IMG/VR virus record: IMGVR_UViG_2534681934_000027
Direction: 5' to 3' (one strand)
DNA: 13,819 bases
Source of the DNA: a virus
Lineage: Duplodnaviria; Heunggongvirae; Uroviricota; Caudoviricetes
Of the stretch, positions 1 through 6,000 are shown piece after piece. The position numbers were made by a program. Every line of letters starts with the position of its first letter. Position 1 is the first letter of the stretch.

Positions 1-3000
1 ATGAGCAGAGCACTTAACAAACTGAGCGATACACAGCTGAGGAAAATCAACGGCACACCCGCCCAAAAAACAGCCTTTCTTAATGACGGTGGAAACCTGA
101 GCGTCAGGCATTCAACCAGTGGCCTTTTAACCTGGTATTTCACTTACAGGGCCGGAACGGGAAGGGGGGCACCACCGGAACGCATTAAGCTGGGAAATTA
201 TCCTGATCTGAGCCTGAAATCAGCCAGGGAAAAAGCCGCCCAGTGTCGCGCATGGCTGGCAGAGGGGAAAAATCCACGTCATGAGCTTAATTACACCGTA
301 CAGGAAGCGTTAAAGCCGGTAACGGTTGGCGATGCGCTCACCTACTGGCTTGAGTCGTACGCAAAGGAAAACCGCGTGGATTATGCCGCCCTGAAAAAGC
401 GCCTTAATAATCACGTAATACAGCACATTGGTGCTATGCCGCTGGATAAATGCGAGCTACGGCACTGGCTGGCCTGTTTTGACCAGGTGGCAAAGCGAAC
501 GCCTGTTACTGCCGGATTCTTGCTACAGACGTGCAAACAGGCGCTTAAGTTCTGCCGGAGGCGGCGCTATGCAATCAGCAACGTTCTTGATGATATGAGT
601 GTGGCGGACGTTGGGAAAAAACCGGATATAAGCGAGCGTGTCTTAAGCACCAAAGAACTGGGCGAATTATTGCAGGCACTGGACAAAAAAATATTCTCCC
701 CCTACTACATCGCGTTAATCCGCCTCCTGATTGTGTTCGGATGCCGGACGGTAGAACTGAGGTTATCGGAGATCAGCGAGTGGGATTTTACCGAAATGCT
801 CTGGACCGTTCCGAAGGAGCACAGCAAAACGAAGGTAGCCATATTCCGGCCTATACCGGAAGCAATACTGCCGTTCATCACGCAGCTGGTGGAGCAGAAC
901 AGGCACACGGGCTTATTGCTGGGGGAAGTGAAACAGGAGGCCAGCGTATCGCAGTATGGAAGATTAGCGCACAGGAGGCTTAATCACCCTCACTGGTCAC
1001 TGCATGACATCCGGCGCACCTTTACAACCATGCTGAACGATTTAGGCGTTGATCCGCATGTCGTGGAGCAGCTTACAGGCCACCAGATGCCAGGAATGCA
1101 GCGAGTTTATAATCATTCCCGTTATCTGGATGCGAAACGCAATGCGCTGGATATGTGGACGGAGCGGTTAGGGATACTGGCGGGAACACATGAAAACGTA
1201 ACCACGCTACCAGTAGCCAGAAGAAAATAATTTTTTTCGTGTTTTTTCAGTATGCGCATACTGGATATGCGAACAGATACAACGTGCAACAATGAGCAAC
1301 AATGAGCAACAATGTGGAACAACTACGAACAAGAGGCGAAAAAGCGTACGGATTTATAAGTAGCTGATTTTTAATGTGTTACTGGTTTTTTATACACTAG
1401 CGAATCACTCTTTAAAGAGCGAGAAAAAAGGCATGGAACAATATTTTATGCCTTTGTATTAACATGAATTTAAAAGATTTTATTCTTACTTTTTCATTTT
1501 CTGTAAATCATACATCCTCAGTATTTGCCATTCATCACTCTAGCGGGAACAATACGACACAATAAGACACCTGATGACTCTTTAAGAAACGAAAGGGGGC
1601 AATAGTGTTAAGCACTGATCGGTTTATACGTGAAAAAGAATGCGAAAAACTAACCGGCCTTAGCCGTACGTGTCGCTACCGCCTGGAAAAGGCCGGACAA
1701 TTCCCATCACGTCGTAAACTTGGCGGTCGTTCCGTTGGCTGGTCTTTATCCGAGGTTCTGGCCTGGAAGGATAGCTGCAAGGCAGTTCATTAATCACGCT
1801 GGCGGCACACAGCCGCCACACATCAATCATCTGAACACAGAGCTATAACCATGAAGATTGAATATACGCCAGAACGTGGGCGGGGATTCGTTCGCCCTGG
1901 TGAGACTGGAAAACCACAAAATTGGGGTTTTTCAGGCATAAAAAAAGCGGCCCCGAAATGGAGCCGCCTTTCTGAACAGATAACCCGCTGCGCCTTATGT
2001 GTATATGATCCCAAACATAAGCACGGGGATGATAGCCGCTATCAGGCTGGTGGGCAATGCTATCAGTCTGGTTCAGTTCGTTGCCATACCTGCAATGGGC
2101 GCGTTTCCCTGTACTCTTTAAGGAATTGCTCAAGGGCAAAAGCACATGGCGCGAATCTTTCTGATTCATGCTCTATCTTTCTGCGCCGTCTTTTCCGTGC
2201 CGGTGATAATGTTTTGGTCAATTCTTTATCGGTCATTGTGTTGTCCTGCATAGCAATGCGCCGTAATACCTCACACCACGGCGCTGATAGTTTTTATCCT
2301 TTGGGTTCTATGCCGCGTTGCTGTAATTCTTTGCGGAGAACGCGTTTAATCCAAGTGGCTAAAGATGTGTCGCCATCGGCCTTAGCAGCTTCTTCTAGCT
2401 GCGCTCTGAAGTCTTCCGGTAATCGCATTTGGTATGGAGGCGAACGTTTTTCTAATGGTGTTGACATGGTAATTACCCTTTATTGCTATACCTACATGGT
2501 AATTACCATTGTACTTGCCATTACACAAAAATCAACGCCCCGCAGTGCTGGGAACACATACGGGGCGTCTAACCAACAACGTAAACTAGGAGCCGTTATG
2601 GTTGCCGTAAATCATATACCACACCTTGTACACACACAAACGGCCTTTGTGTGGCGTTTTCTGGCACTGAGTGCCGGAGAATCTCAAATCATCCACGTAA
2701 CCGCCTGGACGGAACGCGAAGCGCGTAACCGTTGCCCGTCCGGTTGTGTTGCTGTATTTGCCGCCCGTATTCGTCAGGAGGTGCGCCATGATTAATCTGT
2801 CACTTACTGACCTTAACCGCATTCAGTTTCGTGAGAAATTCACAGGGCAGCTACTGGTCAATGTGGATAAAGGTCGCGTGGTGTGTAATTACCACTTACC
2901 AGATGAAGCAATTGTCGCCACAAGGGAATCATTACAGGAAATCACAAAACGTGCCGGAATGATTAACACGAATATTCAGGGGATGCTTTATGCACAATAA

Positions 3001-6000
3001 AACCACACCGGACGCAGCCGCCGAAGCCATCAAAACGCTGATGCACGCGCTGATTGATATTTCTGTTATCGCGGACAGGGCACATAAGCACGCCACCAGC
3101 GAAACAGAATATGCCGGTGCTTTCGTTCCTCACTCACTGGCTGTCATGCAATTTAGTGCTGATACGGCGCTGAATGAGGCCAAAGCTATCCTGATTGCTG
3201 ATTGTGAAAATGGGGGGGTTATGCGTGATGATCGTTTTAATTCCCTGAAACAGGAATTTTCCGGCGTTCCTGATGATGCGGCTGATGCGCTTTCGTCAAT
3301 GCCAGAACTTATTAGAGCGGCTTTTTTCTTACTTTCCACGAGAGAATATAAATCAACGGGGCTTGATGTACTGAATATCGCCGCCGATTATGCGGAATAT
3401 GTGGCAGAGGCGCGTTATAGAAGAAAATTTCCTGAGGATGTAAGCCATGCGTGATATTTACCACCAAACAATAGACCGCGCATTTCTTGCACTTTCTCAC
3501 AGTGAAAACATGATGGAAATATTGCGCATATGGCTTGAAACACTTGGCGACAATGAACGCGACAAACAAAAATCAAGAATTGCCACGGCATTAATAACGC
3601 TTCTTGAGCCTGTAATAATGGAACTGCAAGAAATAGATCTATTGCACGACAGATATAAAGAACAGCACACCGGAGAATAAAAATAATGAAACTTAAATAT
3701 TCTGGCTTAACTGCCAGTGGCAACACTCACCCTAAATTTACGCGCGGTGATATTTACCGCGACCAGTACGGCGGCACGGTAATGATTAAGGGCGTGGAAG
3801 AACGGCGCGTAACCTACCGCCGTGAAGGTTACGAATATGATTGCGTGATGCCTGTTTATCAGTTCCGGCGTGATTTTTCTCTGGTACAGACCGCGCCGCA
3901 TAACGTGCCCACCAGCAACGCCAGGGCACGGGCAAACATCCAGAAGCTGAAAACCATGGTTAACGGATTCAGGGGCAAGAAATGAAAAGCGCACCGAACT
4001 TAAAAAAACAGCCTTACGACAAGATGACCGAAGTCATTATTTTTGCGGGTAGTGATGCCTGGGCACATGCGAAACAGTGGCAGGAACAGGACGGGCGACT
4101 GGCTGGCGATAATGTGCCTCCCGTTGTGCTGGCTGATGATCAACTGGATGAACTGGCAGAACTGAGAATCATCGACGAGGGGCGCTATTGTGTCCGGCTG
4201 TACAAGGCAGGCCACATCAGGCCATCAAATATTAATGCCATTGCGCACAAGCTGGCGGCGGCGGGTGTAACTGATGCGAATTATTACCCCGAAGGGATGC
4301 ACAGCCATATGCGGGAGAACTGGCGCGAATACCTGGAACGGGTGCGCGGGAAAGAGCCGGCGGAAGAAAAAAACCACCAGCGAAAAACCACGCTACCGAT
4401 GAGCGTTGGATCTACCGGATACGACACGCAACTGGATTACGTGGTTAAGGGGATTATTCCGGCGGTATCGCTATGCAGCATATACGGGGCTAGCGGGTCC
4501 TATAAATCATTCCTTGCCGGATCGTGGGCGTGCCATGTTGCCACTGGTCGCCAGTGGGGAGGCCGCAGGGTTGCACATGGTGCGGTTCTCTATGTGGTTG
4601 GTGAAGGCGGTATAGGTGTTCCGCGTCGTGTAAAAGCCTGGGAGGTTGTGCACGATGAGCAGGTGAAAAATCTGTATCTGGTAAACCGCCCCATCTTTCC
4701 GGCTGCCCCGCTTGATGTTGATGAAATGGTTATCGCTGCCCGTCAGGTGGAGCGGGAAACGGGTAAACCTGTACGCATGATTATTCTGGATACGCTGGCG
4801 CGTTGCTTTGGTGGGAATGATGAAAATGATTCCCGTGATATGGGGGCGTTTATCCGTGGTTGTGACGAACTGAAACGACGCACAGGGGCCACGGTGCTGG
4901 TGGTTCACCATTCCGGCAAGGATGAGACGAAAGGCGCGCGCGGTTCCAGTGCATTTCGTGCTTCGCTGGATGCTGAATACCGGATACGCAGGGAGGACGC
5001 AGGAAGCGAAGCGCTGGTTATCTCATGCACCAAAATGAAGGACGCGGAGGAACTCAAAGAAGCCGCATATGACTTACGCGTGGTGGAGCTTTTTACCGAC
5101 GCTGACGGTGAATTAATCACGTCGCTGGTGGTGGTGGATGATCCGCGCCCTCCTGTTGAACTGGAGCGCATCGAGGAGGCAGGGAACAAGACGGAAAACC
5201 ATACCGCGCTATGGGGGTGCATCCGTTCACGCACACAGAACGGCGACAAGTGCACGATCCCGCTGTTACGTGATGACATGAAAAAGCTGGGGTATGAAAT
5301 GAAAAACTTCCGGCGCTGGCTGTACAAGCTGGAAAAAGATGGGGTTATTCGTATCGATGGGGATGATGTAGCGCCGCTATAAAAGTGAGGAGCAAAAGCG
5401 AGGGGGATAGAAAGAGGGCCAAAATTAGCCCGCTCTCCCTCACTTTTCGACCTGTATACATCCTCAAAAGTGAGGGGTAAAAAAATACTTATGAAACACA
5501 CACATAGAAAAACCGAAAATCCCAACTGCGACGAAGTGAGACGCTTGAAAAAGTGAGGCGAAAAAGTGAGAGGTTGCGAGAAATGACCCAAAAACGCAGA
5601 GACAGAACAGAGCCAAAATATAAAGCGTTAGACATGACTGAGCACACCTTAAAGGTGGCAATCAGAACGATAGACCGCCACACGCGGGAAGGATACGCGA
5701 AGGAACATCCCGACCTGATAAGCGCATTCATGACCACGGCGGCGGCAAACTTTGCCACGCTGACAGAACGGGAGATTGCCGAAGCGGAACAGGTAACAAC
5801 CATCAACGTTAAAACCGGAGAGGTGGAATTATGACGGCACAGATAGCCGCTTACGGGCGGCTGGTGGACGACCCGCAGGTAAAACAGACCAGCAAGGGCA
5901 CACCGATGACGCTGGCGCGTATGGCGGTATCTTTGCCATGCAGCCAGGCACAGGACGGACAGGCGACGTTATGGTTATCGGTCATCGCATTTGGCAAACA

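Follow-up and report, generated by a model that had tools for sequence, protein, structure and literature searches.

The phage-inducible chromosomal island (PICI) EcCICFT073 (Fillol-Salom et al. 2018, 2019) is a close described counterpart of the element carried by IMG/VR virus record IMGVR_UViG_2534681934_000027, a stretch of 13,819 nucleotides (the window) in which a chain of small, mostly overlapping genes at positions 2598–3985 leads into a replicase gene. This chain is the subject of the present analysis. In the EcCICFT073 family, helper phage switches on the expression of AlpA, AlpA activates the rightward early operon of E. coli PICIs, and the helper induces the island rather than the island inducing the helper; a replicase followed by iterons is the layout described for Gram-negative PICIs (PMC6092414). 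EcCICFT073 occupies the same insertion site as the window island, and the two share the gene order int, alpA, Icd-like gene, overlapping small genes, DUF4222 gene (C1493 in EcCICFT073), replicase, ssb and PerC, as well as a right part with a lambda-E-like capsid gene, a decoration protein gene and an Rpp/TerS-like gene. Like the window, EcCICFT073 carries homologues of the small genes designated o2N, o2C and o3 below; however, it has an extra ECs1579-like gene, lacks ORF1, encodes o2N and o2C separately (with a G8 tract at their junction) and uses a D5-type primase, whereas the window differs in that its terS/Rpp-like gene is split by an insertion sequence (IS) element.

Two further described systems share parts of the chain. 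RgdR, a 99-aa protein encoded on OI-51 of E. coli O157:H7, activates the LEE1 promoter (LEE: locus of enterocyte effacement) and type III secretion (T3S), represses motility, raises Congo red binding and binds DNA without sequence specificity, and its RGD motif at residues 20–22 is needed for T3S activation, which the substitution R20C abolishes (Flockhart et al. 2012, PMC3378721). All analyzed E. coli PICIs encode RgdR (Fillol-Salom et al.). The second system is a locus of strain ECOR61 that arrests growth upon expression of orf24, a T7-family accessory gene; transposon insertions that suppressed the arrest had struck an Icd-like gene and two hypothetical genes next to it, reconstitution of the effect required the full set of six linked genes, primase included, and removal of the Icd-like gene abolished growth arrest (Silas et al., bioRxiv 10.1101/2023.04.06.535777).

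Comparison of the window with these systems revealed that the kind of element and one protein of the chain, RgdR, are already known, while ORF1–ORF3 constitute an uncharacterised variant cassette with some new and testable features. The chain belongs to the early operon of a PICI, and we consider it fairly probable that in this operon RgdR acts with the replicase or the transcription machinery and the three small proteins encoded by ORF1–ORF3 act as modulators or sensors of phage input.

The island and its coupled early operon

Sequence comparison assigns the window element to the EcCICFT073 family of PICIs, as an island of E. coli O157:H7 at the roxA (ycfD)–phoQ site. It lies between roxA (ycfD) and phoQ, the site also used by EcCICFT073, with int at its left end, an alpA gene, all island genes on the plus strand and a replicase followed by an iteron origin, and its size without the IS (about 11 kb) fits the 10–15 kb range of PICIs. 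Many O157 and O145 genomes match the window with 100% identity, and strains EC4115 and PV15-279 contain the same island without the IS. The earlier note on this DNA had drawn its comparison with satellite P4; the element is not a P4-like satellite, and its site and gene order are those of an EcCICFT073-type PICI. Identity with OI-51 of Sakai and EDL933 itself was considered and rejected, as those strains hold a different island at the same site (OI-51, also CP-933C, Sp7 or EcCIEDL933), a capsid-forming PICI with other packaging genes.

The rightward order of genes is alpA, the Icd-like gene, ORF1, ORF2, ORF3, ORF4, replicase and origin, with the following features:

1–1230, plus strand: int (integrase), at the left end of the island
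1605–1793, plus strand: alpA (62 aa; Pfam Phage_AlpA, E=5e-17)
2461–2507, plus strand: putative promoter/operator region for the coupled genes, as read from the sequence
2598–2795, plus strand: Icd-like protein (65 aa; NCBIfam phage_ICD_like, E=5e-18; so annotated in RefSeq; 95% identical to Sakai ECs1577)
2788–3000, plus strand: ORF1, or o1 (70 aa, pI 7.9; phrog_340, of unknown function, E=1e-23)
2990–3454, plus strand: ORF2 (154 aa, pI 5.0), read as an in-frame fusion of o2N (2990–3220) and o2C (3221–3454)
3212–3218, plus strand: G7 homopolymer at the o2N/o2C junction, within ORF2, of varying length in related islands
3447–3680, plus strand: ORF3, or o3 (77 aa, pI 5.1; phrog_2196, of unknown function)
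3686–3985, plus strand: ORF4, assigned as an RgdR allele (99 aa, pI 10.2; DUF4222; RGD motif at residues 20–22)
3982–5382, plus strand: replicase (rep) of RepA-helicase type (466 aa; Pfam AAA_25, E=2e-43; RefSeq 'helicase RepA family protein')
5381–5574, plus strand: iterons, 4 to 5 AAAAGTGAGG-like copies directly after rep (repeat families D1, D2 and D5)

Four open reading frames (ORFs) of 70, 154, 77 and 99 aa at 2788–3985 are present exactly as the earlier note described them, and all start with ATG. Its statement that starts and stops overlap holds for ORF1/ORF2 (11 nt), ORF2/ORF3 (8 nt) and ORF4/rep (4 nt, ATGA), but ORF3 and ORF4 are separated by a 5-nt gap; similarly, the Shine-Dalgarno sequence is strong for ORF1 (AGGAGG) and acceptable for ORF3 (GAGGA) and ORF4 (GGAGA), but ORF2 has only a weak GGGGA. 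The chain begins one gene before ORF1, with the previously missed gene of the Icd-like division-inhibitor family, which overlaps the start of ORF1 by 8 nt. A 314-aa ORF at 1851–2795 was discarded as an artefact, since its 5' part is an Icd-like pseudogene remnant in RefSeq (1851–2444) and its 3' end is the real Icd-like gene. In related islands, the interval corresponding to 1851–2795 contains a divergent YlcI/YnfO-family gene.

Just upstream of the Icd-like gene, the region 2461–2507 resembles a promoter that bears operator sites and would serve the coupled genes: TTGACA is located at 2461–2466, and two copies of ACATGGTAATTACC (2464–2477 and 2494–2507) stand 30 bp apart, both of which enclose the palindrome GGTAATTACC. 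Whether run at gathering or at permissive thresholds, Rfam scans detected no P1/P4-type C4/CI-like RNA upstream of the Icd-like gene; the sole Rfam match was the frameshift pseudoknot of the IS3-family element, and the fold of the leader was not unusual (z = -1.6). In the immI icd-ant operon of phage P1, the frame of a small division inhibitor of Icd type is coupled in translation to the genes that follow, and the window shares this coupling of an Icd-type gene; however, it differs from P1 in that the search upstream detected no C4 antisense RNA and none of the genes that follow is a homologue of Ant.

Identical genes are annotated by RefSeq in about 250 genomes (O157:H7, O145 and others), and a survey of 5426 complete E. 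coli genomes found homologues in more than 1000 of them. Pairwise comparison with diverged alleles gave dN/dS values of 0.41 for ORF1, 0.19 and 0.34 for the two halves of ORF2, 0.23 for ORF3, 0.27 for ORF4 and 0.12 for rep. Because of their RefSeq annotation in many genomes and their dN/dS values of 0.19–0.41, all four ORFs are real genes under purifying selection. The reading of these genes as conserved and tightly coupled members of the early operon of a phage satellite, placed immediately before the replicase, is correct. It is extremely improbable that they are spurious or decaying ORFs of a degraded cryptic prophage, as OI-51 was originally described: the Icd-like pseudogene remnant (1851–2444), the IS in the terS-like gene and the frameshift-type fusion in ORF2 would all suit decay, but purifying selection acts on every ORF, the genes are conserved in hundreds of genomes at several attachment sites, and the fused ORF2 persists at 80% identity in a distant island. 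Decay is effectively refuted by the dN/dS values and this conservation.

RgdR and its coupling to the replicase

By sequence, ORF4 is an allele of RgdR (ECs1581), a DUF4222 protein. The earlier note had recognised no family for it, an assessment reversed by the match to Pfam PF13973 (DUF4222) over residues 16–68 (85.7 bits against a cut-off of 27; E=1.6e-24) and by the identity of the published protein. ORF4 is 81% identical to Sakai ECs1581 across residues 1–99, its similarity lies above the level by which Flockhart et al. defined orthologues (>77% over the full length of 99 aa), and it retains R20-G21-D22 (...KFTRGDIY...) and K35. The Sakai protein extracted here has a mass of 11,703 Da and a pI of 10.09, the published values. 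ORF4 and the RgdR of Sakai/EDL933 OI-51 thus have the same length, DUF4222 core, RGD motif, K35 and pI of about 10, and both stand directly upstream of an island replicase at roxA–phoQ. They are, however, different alleles in different contexts: ORF4 is in a classical EcCICFT073-like PICI, follows genes unrelated to those of Sakai and precedes a RepA-type helicase, whereas the Sakai gene is in the capsid-forming EcCIEDL933/Sp7 and precedes a primase replicase. A second RgdR allele, from O157 lineages I/II and II, has also been reported to be active, and the sequences upstream of the alleles differ (PMC3378721), in agreement with the comparison of the window and Sakai. ORF4 is probably of this lineage I/II–II type and, by analogy with the reported active alleles, may activate LEE1 and T3S and repress motility.

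The 3' end of ORF3, upstream of rgdR, contains a promoter-like site at 3591–3619 (TTAATA and AATAAT around a 17-nt spacer, with a TG extension). Such a site could account for production of RgdR while the island is uninduced; however, sites of this kind are no commoner in the region than expected by chance.

An AlphaFold2 (AF2) model of RgdR, built from a diverse DUF4222 alignment, was confident for core residues 20–70 (pLDDT 86–91), which form five strands in a small barrel followed by a long C-terminal helix. The core is predicted to be a Tudor/KOW-like barrel and resembles those of the RNA-polymerase-binding CarD RID, UvrD/PcrA C-terminal domain and Spt5/NusG KOW, but the identity to these domains is only 10–17% and the scores are typical of any SH3-like barrel. 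A fold search of BFVD matched only uncharacterised small barrels and DUF1653 proteins.

The genes around RgdR homologues were surveyed in 80 loci from IMG/VR and in several loci from genomes. The RgdR stop overlapped the replicase start by 4 nt in every locus with downstream sequence (76/76), and this overlap was constant across RepA helicase, D5_N/DUF5906 primase and Sakai-type replicases; a DUF927 replicase was also located 3' of RgdR in two loci (L005 and L010). On the other side, each of the 80 IMG/VR loci had an o3 or ECs1580-type ORF directly upstream of RgdR, and the distance from its end to RgdR was 5 or 17 nt (6 and 16 nt once each). ORF3, RgdR and the replicase therefore form a fixed core. 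The window replicase, over its N-terminal ~122 aa (3982–4347), shares 67% identity with the N-terminus of the Sakai primase ECs1582, and in other PICIs (L009 and L010) the D5_N and DUF927 replicases likewise begin with a version of the first ~60 residues, so that an N-terminal domain of about 120 aa looks common to these replicases and inherited in one block with RgdR. This shared domain had no Pfam or PDB match. The iterons at 5381–5574 are presumed, by analogy with other Gram-negative PICIs, to be the PICI origin (ori).

Another explanation is that ORF1–ORF3, with ORF3 foremost, assist RgdR and the replicase as loaders, chaperones or copy-control partners and have no direct phage target. In its favour are the translational coupling to rep, the constant place of ORF3 or its analogue directly upstream of RgdR–rep, and the inheritance of RgdR and the shared replicase N-terminal domain in a single block. 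Nevertheless, ORF1, o2N and o2C are dispensable in many islands with the same replicase types, and none of the proteins resembles a known loader or initiator family in Pfam or NCBIfam. A pri-rep-ori segment of EcCICFT073 drives plasmid replication, in a passage of PMC6092414 that is silent on the upstream genes. We regard this explanation as possible though rather unlikely. Homology to housekeeping replication proteins, which the earlier note had set against its own reading, was not found.

DUF4222 proteins are also associated with replication genes outside PICIs. Prophages of other Enterobacterales have shorter DUF4222 ORFs that run into the start of an O-like initiator gene (HTH_36 + Phg_2220_C), and in SfIV/e14-type phages a DUF4222-like ORF lies unannotated, in another frame, over the 3' half of ymfM. 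In Shigella phage SfIV, this ORF (2938–3159 of locus L007; also in L011 and L016–L018) overlaps the start of the O-like initiator by 11 nt. The ymfM gene of e14 is a reported SOS-inducible filamentation gene, and a 'ymfM' clone would include most of the hidden DUF4222-like ORF. A connection of DUF4222 with the e14 division inhibitor YmfM was rejected as stated, since the tblastn match lies in a different frame from annotated ymfM.

The variable cassette between the Icd-like gene and the core

Arrangements were counted in the 81 loci with an upstream Icd-like gene found. Seven or more unrelated families of small genes fill the interval between the Icd-like gene and RgdR, in at least 12 different arrangements, and that of the window (o1, o2N+o2C, o3) was present in 3 of the 81; hhalign comparison among the small-gene families revealed no hidden paralogy. 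Alignment with the Sakai island gave 93% nucleotide identity up to the stop of the Icd-like gene (2795), after which identity was lost until 3671. Sakai fills the equivalent of 2795–3671 with three genes, ECs1578–1580, which are unrelated to ORF1–ORF3 except for a faint similarity of ORF3 to ECs1580 (26% identity, E=4e-7). ORF1 occurs only in some arrangements, and in some islands, among them MS15046, it has another position, after o2N, and a longer, 121-aa form. The comparison with related islands, which had been proposed as a check, thus showed that the genes are conserved and that their order is variable between the Icd-like gene and the ORF3–RgdR–replicase core. The small genes ORF1, o2N and o2C are specific to satellites, and they are shuffled and optional.

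The absence of a recognisable family, asserted earlier for all four genes, stands for ORF1–ORF3, which matched no Pfam, NCBIfam, PADLOC or PDB sequence and only PHROGs of unknown function. A tblastn comparison with 50,697 phage records gave no match at E≤0.01 for any of the three, and PADLOC models gave no match at E≤1 for ORF1–ORF4, the Icd-like protein or rep. A search for ORF3 homologues yielded 525 clusters, nearly all from E. coli, and returned only sequences at least 91% identical.

Comparison with related islands identifies ORF2 as an in-frame fusion of two genes that are separate elsewhere. Its residues 1–73 match phrog_5146 and residues 78–154 match phrog_24341, with the library matches breaking at residues 77/78, and an exhaustive phmmer search of 1.84 billion representatives found only 53 clusters, which either belong to one and the same narrow family or represent fragments and fusions of genes nearby. 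In CFT073, ATCC 25922 and MS15046, o2N (73 aa) and o2C (73–77 aa) are separate genes with a stop/start overlap (ATGCGTGA); in MS15046, another gene stands between them. The state of the junction followed the length of the poly-G tract: loci with G7 (10) and G10 (1) were fused, and those with G8 (14), G9 (6) and G11 (1) were split. The length of the tract thus sets whether o2N and o2C are fused or split, and the tract might slip at measurable frequency. A fused ORF2 with 80% identity is present in a distant island at tRNA-Pro; therefore, the fused form is stable and presumably functional. In the 81 loci, o2C was never found without o2N, which suggests that the two proteins act together. The AF2 model of ORF2 was all-helical with low confidence (pLDDT 59), and a Foldseek search of this model against the PDB matched only generic helical bundles (E>0.3), a result that we regard as uninformative.

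The ECOR61 locus, a six-gene superinfection-exclusion or programmed-cell-death system, resembles the window operon in combining an Icd-like gene, overlapping small genes and a primase. Its transposon-struck genes measure 366, 186 and 192 nt, overlap by 8 and 1 nt and have the primase nearby. The same geometry was found in locus L085, with Icd (121 aa), s1578 (61 aa), s1579 (63 aa), s1580 (73 aa), RgdR and primase, and in many other loci. From this gene geometry, and not from sequence, we infer that the ECOR61 system is an 's-type' variant of the operon of the window, in which an Icd-like gene likewise heads overlapping small genes, a DUF4222 gene and a replicase. There are differences: ORF1–ORF3 are unrelated to ECs1578 and ECs1579, the ECOR61-type small genes (61 aa and 63 aa); the ECOR61 Icd-like protein has a long N-terminal extension, whereas that of the window has only 65 aa; and orf24-triggered growth arrest is published for the ECOR61 variant only. 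By this analogy, a role of the small genes in interaction with phages is plausible, and the response of ECOR61 is defence-like rather than helper manipulation.

Manipulation of a helper was what the earlier note had proposed from the comparison with P4. The left operon of P4 contains kil, eta, cI, epsilon, orf151 and alpha, and, like the chain in the window, it is an early operon of a satellite in which small genes precede the replicase gene. A member of ORF1–ORF3 would then be an epsilon-like anti-repressor, or would transactivate or block helper genes. The position upstream of the replicase does parallel that of epsilon/orf151–alpha, the proteins are small and acidic, and the cassette differs between islands, as helper-specific factors would. 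However, the part of the P4 parallel that stands is this position, since ORF1–ORF3 had no sequence similarity in the phage collection and hence matched no P4 protein there (epsilon, orf151, kil, eta, delta, psu or sid); nor was a C4-like RNA or a sid/psu capsid gene found, the capsid genes of the window being lambda-E/D-like. The window has an AlpA activator and P4 has CI RNA immunity, and PICIs of the EcCICFT073 family are induced by the helper, whereas P4 derepresses its helper. EcCICFT073 has homologues of o2N, o2C and o3, yet deletion of rppA alone restores lambda plating, in an interference screen that covered only genes downstream of ori; therefore, these homologues are not sufficient for lambda interference. 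A role in helper derepression or as an anti-repressor thus finds no support beyond position, and P4-style manipulation is quite improbable.

A similarly low probability applies to ORF1–ORF3 as anti-defence cargo, that is, inhibitors of host immunity (DNA mimics or anti-restriction-like proteins) that would protect the island. Acidic small proteins (pI ~5) encoded early in a fast-shuffled accessory region between conserved genes carry the signature by which Silas et al. (bioRxiv 10.1101/2023.04.06.535777) searched for counter-defence genes of phages. On the other hand, the genes are preceded by an inducible promoter and an Icd-like gene and do not occupy a leading end, their dN/dS of 0.2–0.4 gives no sign of positive selection, and no known anti-defence family was matched in Pfam, with no search of a dedicated anti-defence library made.

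Right part of the island and proposed working of the operon

Downstream of ori, the island contains ssb, a PerC-family gene, a lambda-E-like capsid gene, a decoration gene and a terS/Rpp-like gene, the last with the following features:

From 9396, plus strand: start of the terS/Rpp-like gene, with an IS3-family element inserted within
Within 9396–11081: IS3-family element, with orfB at 9868–10758, orfA at 10755–11081 and the ALIL frameshift pseudoknot at 10684–10800

The terS/Rpp-like gene is intact (180 aa) in EC4115 and PV15-279. The window's copy of the island is probably defective for packaging through the IS in this gene and, given the interruption, may not be transferable. A PerC-family gene is located 3' of the replication genes both in the window (6252–6524) and in SfIV-type phages (L007, 4087–4581). 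PerC/Pch proteins activate LEE1, as does RgdR, so that two LEE activators flank mobile-element replication modules.

In the mechanism that we favour, with the ECOR61 sister operon as its model, induction by a helper phage would switch the operon on through AlpA, and tight coupling would fix the stoichiometry of its products. The Icd-like protein would arrest division, and RgdR, a predicted Tudor/KOW-like barrel with a basic helix, would act with the replicase or the transcription machinery on island DNA, its effect on LEE representing cross-talk. ORF1–ORF3, as small acidic helical proteins, would be protein-binding modulators that tune or sense phage input to the module, which would as a whole convert this input into Icd-mediated growth arrest and island replication.

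A more specific proposal, which we hold to be unlikely, is that RgdR, instead of an accessory virulence regulator, is a core Tudor/KOW-like factor of replication modules in PICIs and lambdoid prophages, kept in a fixed ratio with the initiator and contacting RNA polymerase or the replisome, and that the interchangeable ORF1–ORF3, with the poly-G tract as a switch between fused and split forms, are allele-specific sensors or adaptors through which phage proteins would act on Icd-mediated growth arrest and island replication. If true, the operon would be a modular phage-sensing switch, with LEE activation as collateral cross-talk.

In the literature on enterohaemorrhagic E. coli, RgdR is treated as a horizontally acquired virulence regulator with an unknown mechanism. 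Its hard-wiring to a satellite or prophage replicase, together with a predicted fold like that of RNA-polymerase binders, would reframe LEE activation as cross-talk from a mobile element, and this wiring and fold point to concrete binding partners. The poly-G tract in ORF2 offers a simple, testable case of homopolymer-controlled protein architecture. ORF1–ORF3 are good candidates for factors that connect helper or competitor phages to the activity of Gram-negative PICIs, because they form a shuffled cassette found only in satellites, within an operon plan that has been linked experimentally to phage-triggered growth arrest.

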